Source: an uncultured Polyangiaceae bacterium (GTDB lineage Bacteria > Myxococcota_A > Polyangia > Polyangiales > Polyangiaceae). Taken from it: 11,319 nt of DNA. This document shows positions 1 to 5,276 of this stretch, in pieces. The stretch covers positions 20,103-31,421 of the forward strand of contig CAZSDX010000010.1 of assembly GCA_964605685.1 (NCBI GenBank), written 5' to 3'. Both the position numbers and the translations under genes were made by a program. Position 1 is the first letter of the stretch. Each line of letters begins with the position of its first letter. The notes below the pieces were generated by a model. That model did not search any database and had not been told where the DNA came from. It was given only the letters and a program-made list of their open reading frames with translations.

Positions 1-90
1 CTGCCCGGAGGCCGGGGGGTGAGGTTTCTCCTGCCCGGAGGCCGGGGGGTGAGGTTTCTCCTGCCCGGAGGCCGGGGGGTGAGGTCTCCC
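1..90. repeat. 3 x 30-bp perfect tandem direct repeat (ctgcccggaggccggggggtgaggtttctc), in frame inside the MTase ORF
   Basis: Read directly from the sequence. On the minus strand each unit encodes GETSPPGLRA. Copy 3 differs from copies 1 and 2 at two nucleotides (ttc to ctc, and tcc to ccc), and both changes are synonymous in the minus frame (GAA/GAG Glu, GGA/GGG Gly). The array abuts the window edge, so more copies may exist beyond it. Confidence 0.9.
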
Positions 91-1876
91 CCAACCGCTC
101 CAGAATCGGTCTGAGCGTTTTCTGGACGATGGGCCGCGTGAGCTCCGGCGGCGTGTAGTGGGAGCCGGAGCGGCGGCGCTCCTCGGTGGGCTGGAGGAAG
201 AGGCTGCCGGGGTGGAGGACGTGGGGGGTGCGAGGGGAGAGGCGGCGGTCGAGGGCGGTGAGCAGCTCGGGGACCGTGCGGGCCTTCTTGAGGGCCTCCG
301 CGGGCTTCCCGGAGAGCTCGCAGCGAGCCTTGTCCTTGAGCCATTTGGCGCGCTCGGCGGGCTTCGCGGCGAGGAGCTGGTCGAGATCGATGACGACGTG
401 CTGGGGGGTGACGGCGATGGCCGAGCCCGCGGCGCGCTCGACGGTGAAGCCCATCATGTTCTCGTAGACGGAGCCCAGGTGCTCGACGTCGAGGGTGCGG
501 TAGGAGATGCGCTCGCCGTCGAGGAACATCAGGTTGTCCAGCACCCGCAGCACCACGCCGTCGGAGAGCCGCGGGACGGAGGAGAGGCGCCGGTAGAAGC
601 CCTCGTCCTGCTGCGTGGCCTCACGGACGCGCCCCTCCAGGAAGGTGTACCGCTCGGGGTCGAAGAGGTCGCCGTAGCGGGGGGGCATGTGGAGGGAGAC
701 CTCACCCCCCGGCCCCCTCCCCATCGATGGGGAGGAGAGGCGCTGTTCTGCCTCCCCCCTCCCCATCGATGGGGAGGGGGGCTGGGGGGGTGAGGTTGAC
801 CCATCGACCCCGTGGTGGACCATGCGGAAGAGCGTGAGCAGCCAGGACCAGGCGCCGAAGCGCTGGCCCATGGTGTCGGGGTGAAGCCCCCGATCCGCCC
901 GGAGCCGCTCGTGGAGCGTGGTGAGGGCGTAAGAGCTGCCGTAGAGAGGCCCCTGGGCCGCGACCTCGCGCTCCTCGGCGTAGAGCAGGAAGACCAGGCG
1001 AAGCAGGACCGTGAGGAGGCCGCCATAGATGTCCTCCGGGAGCACCCCGCGGAGGAGCTTGCCCTGGGAAGCCTCGTCCGCCGCGTTGAAGCCCCGGAGC
1101 AGCTCGTAGAGGGCGAGGAGGGCCTGCTCGGAGAGCTGCTCGGAGACCTCGTTCTGGAACTTGCGGGAGGATTCGAGGAGGGGGAGGAGGCGAGAGCGCG
1201 GATCGCCCTGGAAGAGGCGGGCTGGGTCCAGGAGCATGCGCAGGGCAGCGAGGATGGGGCGGCCCGCGGTTTCCAGCATGGGCTGGAGGGGGAAGGTGAG
1301 GTGACCGGAGGCCTCGCCGCGTGGGGCGTAGACCAGGCGCAGGTGGGTTCCGTTGGAGAGGAGGCCGACGGGGATCTGGCGCTCCCGCAGCAGGCGCTCG
1401 AAGCGGATTTGGGGGCTGGTTTTCCAGGCGCGCTCGTGGAGGCCCGGGTGAGGGCGATCGAGGGCGGTGCCGGGGAAGAGGGTCTGGACCAGGAGGAGCC
1501 AGGAACCGGGCTGGTCCGGGTCGGGGACCGCGAAGGTGGGGGTGAGGCGATCCTCGAATTCGGGGAGAACGACGGTCAGCTCGTCGGGGAGGGGAGGGCC
1601 GCCCGGGGCGCCGGCCAGGTCGCCTGGTTCCCAGCCGAGGATTTCCCGGGTGAAGGCCGGGAAGTCGGGGATATGGACGCTGTCGGGGAGATCGCCGTGG
1701 CGATCAGGCTTGAAGGTACGCTCCAGGAAGGCGCGGAGGGCGCGCTGGAGGGGCGCGGCGTTCTCGTCGAGGATGACCTGCGCCGCGAGGAGGGCGGCAG
1801 GGGAGACGACCATGCCGACGGGCTGGACGAAGCCGAGCCATGCTTTGTGCGCTTCGAGGGCGAGATCGCGAGCCAT
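1..1876 (-). CDS. N6-adenine DNA methyltransferase, gamma-class (HsdM/PglX/Eco57I/DrmMI-like); first 625 codons only, 3' end beyond window start
   Basis: ATG is the complement of 1874-1876, sharing one nt with the helicase TGA (1876-1878). I translated the minus strand by hand from that ATG and found no stop down to position 1. The translation reads MARDLALEAHKAWLGFVQPV...RLVFLLYAEEREVAAQGPLY...EHLGSVYENMMGF...SGSHYTPPELTRPIVQ. The LGxxYE and xYTPxxV elements are the helical/motif X signature that precedes the AdoMet-binding motif I in gamma-class amino-MTases; motifs I and IV (DPACGSG, NPPY/F) would lie beyond the window, and motif X plus context alone cannot exclude another AdoMet-dependent function. 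The plus-strand ORFs 158..793 and 812..1903 occupy the same codon phase and have E/G/A/R-rich antisense-type composition, so they are shadows of this gene. Confidence 0.7.
   Translation of the reverse strand, partial: MARDLALEAHKAWLGFVQPVGMVVSPAALLAAQVILDENAAPLQRALRAFLERTFKPDRHGDLPDSVHIPDFPAFTREILGWEPGDLAGAPGGPPLPDELTVVLPEFEDRLTPTFAVPDPDQPGSWLLLVQTLFPGTALDRPHPGLHERAWKTSPQIRFERLLRERQIPVGLLSNGTHLRLVYAPRGEASGHLTFPLQPMLETAGRPILAALRMLLDPARLFQGDPRSRLLPLLESSRKFQNEVSEQLSEQALLALYELLRGFNAADEASQGKLLRGVLPEDIYGGLLTVLLRLVFLLYAEEREVAAQGPLYGSSYALTTLHERLRADRGLHPDTMGQRFGAWSWLLTLFRMVHHGVDGSTSPPQPPSPSMGRGEAEQRLSSPSMGRGPGGEVSLHMPPRYGDLFDPERYTFLEGRVREATQQDEGFYRRLSSVPRLSDGVVLRVLDNLMFLDGERISYRTLDVEHLGSVYENMMGFTVERAAGSAIAVTPQHVVIDLDQLLAAKPAERAKWLKDKARCELSGKPAEALKKARTVPELLTALDRRLSPRTPHVLHPGSLFLQPTEERRRSGSHYTPPELTRPIVQKTLRPILERLGETSPPGLRAGETSPPGLRAGETSPPGLRA
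699..796. repeat. 98-bp MITE-like GC-rich element bounded by 12-bp perfect terminal inverted repeats (ACCTCACCCCCC at 699-710, GGGGGGTGAGGT at 785-796) with two internal perfect palindromes (716-735, 20 bp; 754-781, 28 bp) centred on ATCGAT; lies in frame inside the MTase ORF
   Basis: Seen in the sequence. Palindrome 1 is cctccccatcgatggggagg; palindrome 2 is cccccctccccatcgatggggagggggg. The TIR motif GGGGGGTGAGGT also occurs once per unit in the 30-bp tandem repeat at 1-90. The minus frame stays open across the element and encodes low-complexity GSTSPPQPPSPSMGRGEAEQRLSSPSMGRGPGGEVSLHMPP. Confidence 0.75.
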
Positions 1877-1878
1877 CA
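1874..1878 (-). other. TGATG stop/start overlap between the helicase and MTase genes (translational coupling, same operon)
   Basis: Minus-strand bases at 1878..1874 read T-G-A-T-G. Confidence 0.8.
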
Positions 1879-4800
1879 GGTGAGGGATTCCGGCCAGAGG
1901 TAGACGACGCCAAAGGGTTCGACCCGGGAGGCCCGGGTCTCGTAAGCGGCGGTGATGCGCCTGGGTTCGGACGCGAGCTCGCCGTCCTCGCCGTCGATCT
2001 CGCGAGCGCGGCGCTGCCAGTGATCTTGATCGGCCTTGAGCTGGCGTTTTTCCTCGTCGGAGAACTGGAGCGAGAGCTGCTGCCTGGAGCTGCTGTCGAT
2101 CATGTCCTGGATGCGCTTGCGTTGCGCGAGGAGCAGCCTGCGCATGGCCTCGGATTCCTTTTTCCCGCGGTGCAGGAGGGCGCGCTCGGCCTGCTTTCGC
2201 GCGGCCTCCGCCTGCTTGTGGAGCGCCGGGAGGAGCTGCTCGACGTCGGTGGCGACGGCGGAGGCGAGCAGGCGAGCGACGTCCGAGCCAGGGGTACGGG
2301 CGCCCTCGCGGAGGCCCTCCTCGACGAGGCGCAGCGAGGCGTCCGGGGAGAGGTCGGTGGCGGGTTGAAGGGGTTTTTTGCGCAGGTCGAGGGGCTCCCA
2401 GGGGGCCAGGACCGCGAGGATCTGATCGTGGAGGCGGGCGGCGCGATCTCCGAAGAGAGAGAGGCGGCCCAGGAGGACGACGCGGCGCTGCGGCTCGCGG
2501 GAGACCACGAGGACGGCGCGGGCGAGGTCGTGGTAGACAAAGCCCTGGGCGAGGAAGCGGCCGAGCAAGCGCTGGACGAAGCGGTGCTCCAGGTGCAGGT
2601 GGACGGTGCTGTTGTCGAGGTCGCGGGGGGGATGGAAGGAGACGGAGCGGACCGGGAAGCGAGCGCGCCACTCGGCGAGGGAGACGCCGCGGGGCCGCGG
2701 AGGGCGGAGGGTGTCGAGGGTCTCGACCCAGGAGGCGTCGCCAGCGAGGTGGGCGGCGACGGCGCGGAGATCCCAGCAAACGCGGCCGTCGGGCGAGGTG
2801 GACTCGGCAGGCGCCGGGGCCCCGGCGAGGCGGAGGGAAGCCCGGAGCGCGGCCTGGAGCGCCCCTTCATCGAGGTGCAAGTAGTCCCTGGATCGGGCGA
2901 GGATCTTCTCCAGCGCTTGCAGGTCTTCGTTGATCTGCTCGGCCCGACGTCGATCCAGCTCCTCGTCCCATTTCTCCTGGATCCTGGCGTTGTGCTCGGC
3001 CTGGTCGAGGCGGTGGGCGAGCTGGTCCCGCTCCCGGTGTCGGATGCCTCCATCGAGGAGGGAGGCCAGGCGAGCCTCGATGACCTTGCCCTGGCTGCCG
3101 AGTTCTTCCTGGATGGTGAGGGAGCGGCGGACCAGGACCTTGAGGACGTGGTCCTCGGGGCGCTGGAGGAAGACGAAGTAGTAACAGTGGACGACGGGAG
3201 CGCGCTGGAGCTTGCGGTCGATACGGCCGTTGCGCTGCTCCATGCGGGAGGGGTTCCAGGGGATGTCGAAGTGAAAGAGGTCGGCGCAGTGGTTCTGGAA
3301 GTTGACGCCCTCGCGGGCCGCGTCGGTGGCGATGAGGATGCGGAGCGGCGCGGAGCGAGGATCCTGGTTGAAGGCGTGCTTGATCTCCTCGCGGGTGTCC
3401 TCGTCGAGGCCGCCGTGGAAGGTGCGGATGCGGTCCTCGACGTCGCCCAGGCCAGCGAAGGCCTCGGAGAGCTTGCGGAGCAGGTAATCCTTGGTGGTCG
3501 CGTACTCGGTGAAGAGGAGGACGCGGCGGTGACCCCAGCGCTTCCCTTCGTCGAGGAGGTGCTCCCGGATCCAGCGGAGGAGGAACTGGACCCGCGGGTC
3601 CGGGAGGTGGCGTGCGTGCTCGGCGACGCGGGCCATCTCGTCGAGGAGCTGGAGCTCCTCCGGGGGGATGGCGCCGACCTCGGCCATGCGGGTTGCTACC
3701 TCGATCTGGGACTCCTCCTCGCGGCGTAGCTGGTCCTCGGAGAGCTGCCCCTCGTCGTCGTCCGCGTCGGGGGCATCGACCAGGAGGCGGAGGCGCTCGG
3801 GGGCGATGGCCAGCTCCCGGTTGGCCTTCTTGATGCGGGAGTTCTTGTGGATCGCGAGGGTCGAGGCGAAGGCGTCGATGCTGGAGAGCAGGCGCTTCTG
3901 GAGGCCGATGACGGTGAGGACCGCCGCGGCCTGGGCCTTCTTGGTGGCGGCTGCGGTATTTTTTTCGCGGAGCTCCCGGTACCGATCCAGGAGCCGGGAG
4001 AGGACCAGCTCGGGGGCGTCGTCCGGGAGGTGATCGATGTCGATCTGGTGAGGCTTGCGCTCGGGGAAGCCGCCCGCGACGCGGGCGATGTCCCGCTTGA
4101 GCCTGCGGACGATGACCTCTTCGAGGGCCTCCTTGTCCTTCTTGCTCTTGACCGGGACGCCGCGGGTAAACCGCTGGGGGTCGAGGATCTCGAGGAGCGC
4201 GGCGAAGCTGTTGGAGTGCCCGTTGTGCGGGGTGGCCGAGAGGAAGAGGCGATGCTCGAAGCGGGGGGCGAGGTCGCGAACGATGCGGGTGAAGCGGGAG
4301 TCGATGGCGTAGCTTCCGCCGCTGGAGGGGGCGGCGTTGTGGGCCTCGTCGAGGATGAGGAGGGTGCCGTGGGGATCCTCGTCGAGCCAGGAGCGGAGGG
4401 GTCCGGCGTACTCCTCGTCGCGAAGGCGTGCGTGGGAGATGATGAAGCGGTTGTGGGTGGTCCAGGGGTTGACGTTGTACCCACGCTCCTTGCGCCGCTC
4501 GATGATGAAGGCGCGGTCGTGGACGACGAAGGAGAGCCCGAAACGTTCGTCGAGCTCGTCGCGCCACTGAAGCTCGACGGAGGGAGGGCAGGCGACGACG
4601 ATCCGGCGTACCTTCTGGCGCTGGATCATCTCGCGGAGGATGAGGCCCGCCTCGATGGTCTTGCCGAGGCCCACGTCGTCGGCGATGAACAGGTTGACGC
4701 GGGGGAGCTGGAGGGCGCGGCGCAGCGGCTCGAGCTGGTAGGTAGTGACCTGGATACCGGCGCGGTAAGGGGCCTGAAAGAGCTCGGCGTCGGTGGAGGT

Positions 4801-5091
4801 GACGCAGTTCCAGCGGCGAGCGTGGAGGTAGGCAGCGAAGACAGAGGGCTCATCGAAGCCGCGGCGCGCGACCTCTTTCCAGGAAGAACCCCGGAGGACT
4901 TCTGCATCGACCTCGACCTCCCAGAGCACATCCAGGGGAGCGCCCTGGGCGTCGTCATCGAGGCAAGAAAGAGACACCTGGGTCCAGGGATGCGGAGCCC
5001 CGCCCAGCACCCTCTCGACGAGGTAATTTCGAGCTCGAACCCGGACGATGTCCCCTTTTTTGAGGCCGTCGTTTTCCGTGGGAGTATCCAT
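1876..5091 (-). CDS. SNF2-family (DEAH-box, SF2) helicase/ATPase with long C-terminal extension; candidate DISARM class 1 DrmD-like
   Basis: Listed ORF 1876..5247. SF2/SNF2 motifs appear in order: I DDVGLGKT, II LLILDEAH, III FLSATPHNG, IV LLFTEYATT, V ILIATDAAREGVNF, VI QRNGRIDRKLQ. I prefer the internal ATG at 5089-5091 (MDTPTENDGLKKGDIVRVRARNYLVE...) as the start, because the 52 upstream codons from the GTG at 5247 are P/S/G/A-rich and not protein-like. The start is still uncertain between 5091 and 5247. The stop TGA overlaps the MTase ATG. Confidence 0.85.
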   Translation of the reverse strand: MDTPTENDGLKKGDIVRVRARNYLVERVLGGAPHPWTQVSLSCLDDDAQGAPLDVLWEVEVDAEVLRGSSWKEVARRGFDEPSVFAAYLHARRWNCVTSTDAELFQAPYRAGIQVTTYQLEPLRRALQLPRVNLFIADDVGLGKTIEAGLILREMIQRQKVRRIVVACPPSVELQWRDELDERFGLSFVVHDRAFIIERRKERGYNVNPWTTHNRFIISHARLRDEEYAGPLRSWLDEDPHGTLLILDEAHNAAPSSGGSYAIDSRFTRIVRDLAPRFEHRLFLSATPHNGHSNSFAALLEILDPQRFTRGVPVKSKKDKEALEEVIVRRLKRDIARVAGGFPERKPHQIDIDHLPDDAPELVLSRLLDRYRELREKNTAAATKKAQAAAVLTVIGLQKRLLSSIDAFASTLAIHKNSRIKKANRELAIAPERLRLLVDAPDADDDEGQLSEDQLRREEESQIEVATRMAEVGAIPPEELQLLDEMARVAEHARHLPDPRVQFLLRWIREHLLDEGKRWGHRRVLLFTEYATTKDYLLRKLSEAFAGLGDVEDRIRTFHGGLDEDTREEIKHAFNQDPRSAPLRILIATDAAREGVNFQNHCADLFHFDIPWNPSRMEQRNGRIDRKLQRAPVVHCYYFVFLQRPEDHVLKVLVRRSLTIQEELGSQGKVIEARLASLLDGGIRHRERDQLAHRLDQAEHNARIQEKWDEELDRRRAEQINEDLQALEKILARSRDYLHLDEGALQAALRASLRLAGAPAPAESTSPDGRVCWDLRAVAAHLAGDASWVETLDTLRPPRPRGVSLAEWRARFPVRSVSFHPPRDLDNSTVHLHLEHRFVQRLLGRFLAQGFVYHDLARAVLVVSREPQRRVVLLGRLSLFGDRAARLHDQILAVLAPWEPLDLRKKPLQPATDLSPDASLRLVEEGLREGARTPGSDVARLLASAVATDVEQLLPALHKQAEAARKQAERALLHRGKKESEAMRRLLLAQRKRIQDMIDSSSRQQLSLQFSDEEKRQLKADQDHWQRRAREIDGEDGELASEPRRITAAYETRASRVEPFGVVYLWPESLT

Positions 5092-5108
5092 CCGTTGTAC
5101 GAAGGTGA

Positions 5109-5129
5109 GGGAGGGATTGGGAGGGAGGG
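5109..5129 (+). other. Canonical G-quadruplex motif G3-A-G3-ATT-G3-A-G3-A-G3 (five G3 tracts, loops of 1-3 nt) 18-38 nt upstream of the helicase start; the mRNA 5' leader carries the C-rich complement
   Basis: gggagggattgggagggaggg read directly from the sequence. Confidence 0.5.
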
Positions 5130-5231
5130 CCTCGATGTCACGACATGAGACAAGGGCGAAGGATCCTCCGAGAGCGAGCCCGACGCAAGGAGATCCAACC
5201 TGTGCGGAGGGGCCTTGCGCCCAGGTTCGAC

Positions 5232-5276
5232 GGGGGAGAGACCTCACGCTCCCCCCTCGATGGCTGGGGAGGGGGA
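5232..5276. repeat. Degenerate third copy of the same palindromic element family (gggggagagACCTCACgctCCCCCC-TCGATGGctgGGGAGGGGG) in the helicase/vault-protein intergenic region
   Basis: It shares the GAGACCTCAC plus C-tract arm and the CCCC..TCGATGG..GGGGAGGGGG hairpin core with the element at 699-796. gggggag (5232-5238) and ctccccc (5249-5255) form a 7-bp stem. Confidence 0.55.

Follow-up and report, generated by a model that had tools for sequence, protein, structure and literature searches.

We analysed an 11,319-nucleotide stretch of DNA, hereafter the window, from an uncultured Polyangiaceae bacterium (assembly GCA_964605685.1, contig CAZSDX010000010.1, positions 20,103–31,421), centring on a 98-bp palindromic element at positions 699–796 that lies inside a gene of the DISARM defence system. 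The G+C content of the window is about 70%, and genuine genes were told apart by their third-position G+C. The host gene, drmMI (1–1876, minus strand), encodes the DISARM N6-adenine methyltransferase (PADLOC DrmMI profile, E = 2e-162; third-position G+C 0.89). Its open reading frame (ORF) opens at 1903 and its ATG lies at 1876; the window holds the N-terminal 625 codons, the remainder lying past the window start. Directly upstream on the same strand is drmD (1876–5247), which encodes a SNF2-type helicase (PADLOC DrmD, E = 5.6e-304; Pfam SNF2-rel_dom and Helicase_C). Judged from these profile matches, drmD–drmMI is a DISARM class 1 locus, with drmD followed by drmMI as in that class and drmA, drmB and drmC expected past the window start, and the gene that an earlier, sequence-only reading of the window had described in general terms as a methyltransferase (MTase) gene is more precisely drmMI of DISARM class 1. 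The drmD stop codon and the drmMI start codon overlap in TGATG (1874–1878), which suggests translational coupling of the two genes.

An in-frame palindromic insert in drmMI

The sequence-only reading held that a miniature element with perfect 12-bp inverted repeats and two perfect ATCGAT-centred palindromes of 20 and 28 bp interrupts the MTase gene in frame. This anatomy was confirmed. The left terminal inverted repeat, ACCTCACCCCCC (699–710, plus strand), is the family-defining terminus, found in at least 154 matches across at least 120 genome stretches, and the right terminal inverted repeat, GGGGGGTGAGGT (785–796, plus strand), is its exact reverse complement. Between them lie hairpin 1 (714–738; CCCCTCCCC-ATCGAT-GGGGAGG), which holds the 20-bp palindrome CCTCCCCATCGATGGGGAGG at 717–736, a unique 15-nt spacer, AGGCGCTGTTCTGCC (739–753), and hairpin 2 (754–781), which is itself the 28-bp palindrome CCCCCCTCCCCATCGATGGGGAGGGGGG, or CCCCCCTCCCC-ATCGAT-GGGGAGGGGGG. 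The element (72% G+C) thus consists of two inverted half-units around a spacer, and as a whole it forms one long imperfect palindrome with 31-nt arms (705–735 and 758–788) that are 94% complementary; in folding, the spacer becomes the apical loop of a single long hairpin. The right terminus contains TGA in one sense frame. In the drmMI frame it reads GGG GGT GAG GT (GGEV), and the minus-strand frame stays open through the element, translating to ...FRMVHHGVDGSTSPPQPPSPSMGRGEAEQRLSSPSMGRGPGGEVSLHMPPRYGDLFDPERYTFLEG....

Folding, which the sequence-only reading had proposed as a check, set the region 690–805 far apart from shuffled sequence. The RNA fold reached −99.3 kcal/mol compared with −61.6 ± 4.0 kcal/mol for 200 shuffles (z = −9.3) and the DNA fold −54.5 compared with −28.3 kcal/mol (z = −9.8); in neither case was any of the 200 shuffles as good. 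Of the G-quadruplex or i-motif structures that the sequence-only reading had considered, a pattern of four runs of three or more G residues can be read at about 771–791, where the rival hairpin is extremely stable. Within the 11-kb window the terminal 12-mer has five exact copies, more than in any of 200 shuffles, and allowing up to two mismatches there are 12 copies against 3.7 expected, a number reached by none of the 200 shuffles. The degenerate partial copy that had been read at 801–811 could not be told from chance: with up to three mismatches, its ATCGAT core yields four hits in the window, a number equalled in 11 of 200 shuffles, and the stretch may simply be native codons (GVDG).

The frame claim was borne out by comparison with other DrmMI proteins. 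Translation of drmMI reads through the element, adding about 33 codons (701–799, minus strand; 99 bp, boundary ±1–2 codons; peptide STSPPQPPSPSMGRGEAEQRLSSPSMGRGPGGE) that alignment, the PADLOC profile and AlphaFold all set apart. The 33-residue segment is missing from 19 of 19 orthologues (46–56% identity), in which ...LFRLVHDG is joined directly to GxHGxxxLPARHG with no intervening residues. The PADLOC DrmMI profile aligns in two blocks (residues 10–365 and 398–607) that are split around the insert. In the AlphaFold model (mean predicted local distance difference test (pLDDT) score 72.6), residues 366–413, which follow a helix at 351–364, score below 50, and the flanking blocks mostly score 70–90 (10-residue means); the inserted codons are therefore predicted to form a disordered loop. 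Because the net gain is 99 bp and the element 98 bp, the inserted unit must exceed the span of the perfect inverted termini by one base or more. No direct repeat that could represent a target-site duplication was found at the window element or at the at least 49 other full copies described below. We conclude with high confidence that the element is without function for DrmMI, and we found no evidence of the domestication that the sequence-only reading had suggested.

Independent support came from a second strain. In the protein database, the only close relative is P0001, 99% identical and encoded on a 1.5-kb contig from the Joint Genome Institute (JGI), L001. In this independent assembly the element occupies the corresponding site and differs by a single nucleotide and a 6-bp in-frame indel in hairpin 1, the six additional bases completing the stem. 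As both strains have the same insert, the insertion is older than their split. Over the 360 codons upstream of the element, the strains differ by six synonymous and two non-synonymous changes, so drmMI looks to be under constraint. Such data bear on the alternative to an inserted element, in which the segment would be either a low-complexity linker native to this DrmMI lineage or an artefact of assembly. An open frame and a Pro/Ser/Gly-rich peptide like that of many linkers would suit this alternative; against it speak the absence of the segment from every orthologue, the near-perfect palindromy of the 98 bp of DNA (z about −9.5), the termini and architecture shared with family members in over 100 unrelated contigs, and the recovery of the element at one site in two independent assemblies. 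We regard it as exceedingly improbable.

Other copies of the element type lie at the same locus, as the sequence-only reading had proposed from resemblances at 1–90 and 5232–5276. At 1–90 (minus strand), repeat search and alignment revealed a second insertion in drmMI, consisting of at least three tandem 30-bp units (CTGCCCGGAGGCCGGGGGGTGAGGTTTCTC) that each contain CCGGGGGGTGAGGT and add GETSPPGLRA in frame. This array takes the place of the linker that in orthologues immediately precedes MTase motif I (LKVCDPAMGSG); the wider family, too, has tandem arrays made up of terminus-only units (L024, L095 and L106). The window opens inside the array, which may be longer and may have caused the contig end. 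The second resemblance stood in reduced form: between the 5′ end of drmD and a vault-like gene, in the divergent region, lies a degenerate solo half-unit, ACCTCAC-GCT-CCCCCCTCGATGGCTGGGGAGGGGG (about 5241–5275, plus strand), 77–80% identical, and nothing fuller. The locus therefore holds several copies of one element type, at 699–796, 1–90 and about 5241–5275. A third insertion site probably lies in the C-terminal domain of drmMI. In L001 (positions 1235–1531; JGI 3300044993), the sequence past the element is the reverse complement of a C-terminal segment of drmMI (...AAVIVSVVHVGK), which abuts repeat units (TSPPGHPAGETSPP).

Multiple copies within one defence gene raise the question of whether they form a phase-variation switch of the DISARM methyltransferase, working by recombination or inversion between inverted copies or by slippage in the G-tracts or 30-bp units. 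The junction in L001 (...AAVIVSVVHVGK|TSPPGHPAGETSPP), in which the N-terminal 400 codons and the element are followed by the reversed C-terminal region, is the product expected of such an inversion, and the 6-bp indel between the two strains falls within the element. However, short-read assemblies are classically prone to inverted chimeric joins at palindromes of about 100 bp, L001 measures 1.5 kb and comes from one sample, and a chimeric assembly at the palindromic repeat is far more likely than a true inversion. Slippage would leave the gene on, as both the 30-bp units and the 6-bp indel preserve the frame; the window lacks an invertase gene; and the presence of the family in unrelated genes and intergenic DNA of many phyla argues against a DISARM-specific role. 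A switch is accordingly improbable.

A palindromic repeat family in many phyla

The sequence-only reading would have been undermined had orthologues shared the peptide without palindromic DNA symmetry, or had the motif been unique. The peptide is absent from orthologues, and the termini and hairpin architecture occur in over 100 genome contigs of many different phyla, in some cases in frame within genes. A scan of one genome per species with ACCTCACCCCCCGGCC, an exact 16-mer that favours well-conserved termini, returned at least 154 matches in at least 120 genome stretches. Of the 154 matches listed, 107 passed a conservative hairpin test requiring CCCCCTCTCC-loop-GGAGAGGGGG after the terminus; 13 listed matches in Actinomycetota, Acidobacteriota and other Proteobacteria, all without the hairpin, served as chance controls. 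Nearly all listed matches conform to ACCTCACCCCCCGG-CCCCCTCTCC-(3–10 nt)-GGAGAGGGGGAG ... spacer ... CCCCTCTCC-loop-GGAGAGGGG-(N3–5)-GGGGTGAGGT. Hosts among the matches listed are Chloroflexota, Planctomycetota (Gemmataceae), Bacteroidota (Hymenobacter, Saprospiraceae and Bacteroidales), Desulfobacterota, Armatimonadota, Gemmatimonadota, Bdellovibrionota, Spirochaetota and one Peribacteria metagenome-assembled genome (MAG) of the candidate phyla radiation (CPR) lineage. The family is therefore present in at least nine bacterial phyla, besides phage contigs and cyanobacterial plasmids. Many of the listed copies sit at contig ends, as would be expected of repeats that break assemblies.

The half-unit of this family pairs a terminal motif, (A)CCTCACCCC, with the G+C-rich hairpin that comes after it, and a full element is an inverted pair of half-units around a spacer of 15–40 nt. 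There are at least 49 full elements, with a modal length of 95–101 bp, into which the window element falls; other forms are single-hairpin elements of 51–55 bp, many solo half-units and tandem terminus-only arrays. The window element has the ends of the family, ACCTCACCCC(CC) and its reverse complement, as perfect 12-mers that the at least 49 full elements share. It also has a hairpin at the right distance from the terminus, with a variant stem (CCCCTCCCC/GGGGAGGGG, loop ATCGAT), and the inverted-pair arrangement, its 98 bp and 15-nt spacer lying within the total of about 88–125 bp that characterizes the family.

The exact ATCGAT hairpin 20-mer was present in 18 diverse metagenome contigs, adjoining GGGGTGAGG-like ends in several of them (L123, L139, L130 and L131). 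No sister copies from the same organism were found among those 18 contigs, which include neither L001 nor the contig of the window. In blastn searches against plasmids, the window element had no match, and a canonical family member matched two Pseudanabaena plasmids. Family copies are present in 12 IMG/VR viral contigs as solo half-units in apparently intergenic stretches, several a short way ahead of an ATG. Phage-like contigs among them (L159 793–5604, L150 and L160) hold several solo half-units, some 20–60 nt before an ATG, with the hairpin followed by purine-rich stretches; a DUF559 gene, of the kind discussed below, is absent from these contigs. A related but distinct repeat was also observed, as arrays of CCCTCTCCCGC-loop-GCGGGAGAGGG-TCAGGGTGAGGGA and of GGCCACCTCCCC-loop-GGGGAGG (L146 1190–1430 and 1864–2040; L122; L128), suggesting a wider superfamily of repeats; one pair of such arrays brackets a DUF559 gene.

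Insertion in frame is not confined to drmMI. Translated copies interrupt long and clearly coding ORFs in frame, namely those of PnkP, a Fimbriiglobus GT39-like membrane protein, an Anaerolineae HypF, a Chloroflexi membrane protein and a glycine dehydrogenase, and all of them end in ...ERGPGGEV, the same frame as GRGPGGEV in the window. The Hymenobacter PnkP copy (L033 1079–1216) lies in a surface loop between the phosphatase motifs GDVHGC and GDLVDRG. We compared it with 11 close orthologues (P0237–P0247; loci L141–L144), of which 10 are labelled Hymenobacter or Bacteroidota and one is labelled a Janthinobacterium lividum MAG; the element was in the loop in five proteins and absent in six. The spacers of the PnkP-loop copies are diverging rapidly. 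DNA alignment of filled and empty PnkP loops revealed no target-site duplication, in a comparison of diverged species in which very short duplications are possible. Several copies have the opposite of a target-site duplication: inverted symmetry extends 5–13 nt past the termini into lineage-specific flank in L144 (about 1180–1370), L143, L015 (120–195) and L065 (3697–3773), as in GTTCTAGAGGGCG|CCTCACC...GGTGAGG|CGCCCTCTAGAAC of L144. Such extended symmetry hints at foldback copying or arm-to-arm correction. A repeat family that is nearly identical in sequence across at least nine phyla recurrently adds PSP...ERGPGGEV peptides to proteins. Annotation pipelines will truncate genes of this kind or give them odd low-complexity domains.

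DUF559 genes between inverted half-units

A candidate partner gene emerged from the geometry of some copies. In L054 (4589–5128), a 160-residue ORF lies exactly between inverted half-units, and its stop codon is the TGA of the right terminus. Five such ORFs belong to Pfam DUF559 (PF04480; Vsr-like), with E values of 1e-28 to 1e-37. DUF559 ORFs were also observed between inverted half-units in L145 (1449–1921, with a 125-residue ORF at 1501–1878), L079, L098, L099 and L118, and a D-F ... E-[IV]-D-G motif, the presumed catalytic site, is visible in these DUF559 ORFs. Unbiased all-against-all clustering of 5,644 ORFs from 824 kb of flanking sequence ranked DUF559 as the most recurrent family (10 loci), ahead of ABC ATPases and always 0–237 bp from a terminus; no transposase-like ORF family recurred next to the elements in this set. 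A hidden Markov model scan likewise placed DUF559 in 10 loci, in nine of which it was within 151 bp of the terminus core. The right terminus lies 27–117 nt downstream of 8 of 11 DUF559 ORFs, the left terminus usually 44–199 nt upstream, and the ORF frequently stops at the terminus TGA.

Tails (...SGSPSPQGEGAGG) or heads (...RQAPLPPEGKGPGDGV) derived from the element form part of the called protein in 44 of 116 database homologues. Three further DUF559 loci, retrieved solely through protein similarity, form an independent sample. One of them, in a Dehalococcoidia MAG, makes up a perfect terminus–hairpin–ORF–hairpin–terminus unit of about 470 bp, and another is bracketed by arrays of a related repeat (...GCGGGAGAGGGTCAGGGTGAGGGA). 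Four Hymenobacter genomes (L118, L092, L094 and L085) share a syntenic DUF559 gene with flanking elements, immediately upstream of recQ; in L085 it has decayed to a pseudogene in which several stop codons occur, and in L118 and L092 a single stop-to-stop ORF runs from DUF559 across the element into recQ. By sequence, the sole solved relative found is 3HRL, an uncharacterised ‘endonuclease-like protein’. Among open-access papers that mention DUF559, no title or abstract links it to repeats.

These data raise the possibility, which we advance tentatively, that the elements are a pan-bacterial, phage-borne family of palindromic repeats with DUF559, a Vsr-like PD-(D/E)xK nuclease, as partner enzyme. 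DUF559 would recognize the terminus and hairpin, and would either spread the repeats or maintain the identity of their two arms. In that event a role would emerge for a domain of unknown function that is very widespread, the near-identity of a 35-nt half-unit in Bacteroidota, Chloroflexota and Planctomycetota would be explained, and the partnership between nuclease and repeat would resemble that of repetitive extragenic palindromic (REP) sequences and REP-associated tyrosine transposases (RAYTs), in a new kind with a different nuclease fold.

Several observations count against a role for DUF559 in the spread of the family. The permutation test of proximity was moderate, with single hits at p = 0.09–0.58 (short loci) and a Fisher-combined p = 0.0086; one of the three independent DUF559 loci is without a clear element; the window contains no DUF559 gene; and the adjacency could arise from DUF559 homing into repeats or from repeats accumulating at gene ends. 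The geometry and the independent loci are stronger evidence for the link than is the permutation of proximity.

It is similarly possible, and to our minds just as doubtful, that the family is real but is mobilized by something other than DUF559: a RAYT-like Y1 enzyme, an insertion sequence (IS) transposase, phage functions, template switching or foldback synthesis, or gene conversion. DUF559 genes would then neighbour repeats by homing into them or by using their hairpins as terminators. REPs serve as insertion targets for other elements, according to passages in two papers (PMC3733652; PMC12288879). About 90% of element loci have no DUF559 gene within 8 kb, the phage contigs hold half-units but no DUF559, and the symmetry past the termini in L144, L015 and L065 suits foldback copying better than cut-and-paste. 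Against such alternatives stands the recurrence of DUF559, and of no transposase-like ORF family, in the 824 kb of flanks, as well as the ORF that in each of Bacteroidota, Spirochaetota and Chloroflexota lies between inverted termini and stops at the TGA of the terminus. If DUF559 is not the enzyme, the conservation of the half-unit across phyla is still to be explained.

Relation to known repeats and persistence of the insert

We compared the family with three kinds of known repeat and one kind of mobile nuclease gene. Rickettsia palindromic elements (RPEs) are palindromic sequences of about 100–150 bp, often found in frame in unrelated, apparently functional genes (Ogata et al. 2000; PMC10969869, PMC3733652). 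The window element shares with them in-frame insertion of a palindrome and an encoded peptide loop compatible with the fold of the host protein, a resemblance of behaviour only. RPEs have A+T-rich sequences and are limited to Rickettsia; the present family is apparently unrelated in sequence, G+C-rich and distributed over at least nine phyla as well as phage and plasmid DNA. Given the 72% G+C and the hosts, membership of an RPE family is implausible. We know of no partner gene for RPEs.

The likeness to REPs and to REPINs, their paired form, with RAYTs as partners, is closer in architecture (PMC3116915, PMC3337134, PMC3733652). In both systems each half-unit combines a conserved linear end with a G+C-rich hairpin, doublets are inverted around a spacer, solo units are common, no target-site duplication is seen, some copies are intragenic, and a small gene can lie between inverted units. 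The window itself has one doublet (699–796) and one solo unit (about 5241–5275). There are also differences. The 5′ end of a REP palindrome carries a conserved GTAG or CGTC tag (PMC3733652), and the present end, ACCTCACCCC, with its (A)CCTCACCCC motif, is without GTAG or CGTC. RAYTs are tyrosine HUH transposases, whereas the gene flanked here encodes a DUF559 PD-(D/E)xK endonuclease, of which, unlike in REP/RAYT systems, a genome holds several copies (Hymenobacter artigasi, for instance, has two paralogues). Lineage specificity is the usual state of REP sequences; the present half-unit is nearly identical across phyla. No Y1 (HUH) transposase was among the ORF families recurring near elements, although no search with the Y1_Tnp profile was made.

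Transposable elements of the miniature inverted-repeat type (MITEs) such as Correia/NEMIS, ERIC, RUP and Nezha (PMC10969869) are likewise shorter than 300 bp and numerous, form long hairpins on transcription and can produce in-frame fusions. Like MITEs, the present elements are small, carry terminal inverted repeats and contain no ORF of their own. They differ from classical MITEs in that neither a target-site duplication nor a parent IS with the same inverted termini and a DDE transposase was found; DUF559 was the sole recurrent ORF found between termini. For Vsr-like (EDxHD) nucleases, a role as homing endonucleases in fractured genes and in group I introns has been put forward (Dassa et al. 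2009, PMC2677866). That proposal is a precedent for a Vsr-fold nuclease as a free-standing selfish gene in a mobile context, a likeness by description; the homing genes lie between split-intein halves or in introns, mostly in phages, whereas the DUF559 ORF lies between halves of a dispersed repeat.

Searches of existing resources returned no name for the family. Rfam searches with the window (E up to 1) and with eight loci holding canonical members found no family, the window yielding only sub-threshold look-alikes of microRNA hairpins. Literature searches with the literal motif returned only unrelated eukaryotic papers, and keyword searches returned work on REPs, MITEs and RPEs and nothing on this family. 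The family and its possible DUF559 partner appear to be undescribed in the open-access literature searched, with a prior description possible. We therefore file the element as one that behaves as RPEs and REPINs do yet belongs to no named family within the open-access literature and Rfam. Three other classes were dropped as candidates: an intein (no splicing motif), a CRISPR (no regular spacer array) and an integron attC site (no attC-type R and L boxes).

Together, these data make it very probable that 699–796 is a copy of a dispersed, non-coding palindromic repeat of the REPIN, MITE or RPE kind, selfish and tolerated in a loop of DrmMI. The core of the sequence-only reading, a miniature palindromic element in frame in the MTase gene whose family recurs at the locus, is supported by the orthologues, the second strain and other genomes. 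Points against this interpretation are the stems CCCCTCCCC-ATCGAT-GGGGAGGGG, which are unlike the commonest family stem CCCCCTCTCC; the position of one insert immediately before motif I of DrmMI; the lack of a target-site duplication in at least 49 full copies and between filled and empty PnkP loops; and the fact that we saw neither a recent insertion nor, in any near-identical genome, an empty site. We treat the window element as a lineage variant because its stems differ from CCCCCTCTCC.

The history that we propose begins with a copy that would have landed where drmMI encodes a surface linker, between the MmeI_N-like N-terminal region and the methyltransferase region. The insert persists because its length is a multiple of three and its frame avoids the TGA inside GGGGGGTGAGG, and selection has not removed it because the outcome is only a disordered Pro/Ser/Gly loop. 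Members of the same family would have hit drmMI again at 1–90, and probably a third time towards the C terminus, and would also have left a solo half-unit in the intergenic DNA upstream. Copies visible within genes would be those that passed a survivorship filter (a length divisible by three, a frame free of stops and a site in a surface loop), an explanation of a type proposed for RPEs (PMC10969869, PMC3733652). A DISARM methyltransferase with two, probably three, repeat insertions, one of them directly before the S-adenosylmethionine (SAM)-binding motif, nevertheless keeps an open frame.

The family would spread by means of a trans-acting enzyme that leaves no target duplication, as REPINs do with RAYTs, and the DUF559 gene between inverted half-units would hold the position that the RAYT gene holds between REPs. 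By this analogy, we suggest with moderate confidence that spread is trans-acting and that DUF559 may be the enzyme or at least a dedicated partner. The mRNA hairpin of about −99 kcal/mol may lower expression or attract a double-strand-specific RNase, incidentally and not as its purpose; other side effects may be the extrusion of cruciforms, recombination among copies and the breakage of assemblies.

Divergent from the DISARM genes, the window continues with a gene for a vault-like protein of about 900 residues (about 5384–8103, plus strand), in which, in this bacterial context, Pfam identifies the shoulder domain of Major Vault Protein and vault-repeat domains (E values 2e-9 and 2e-7). To the right of this gene are a DUF481 gene and genes for a penicillin-binding transpeptidase and a GT2 glycosyltransferase.

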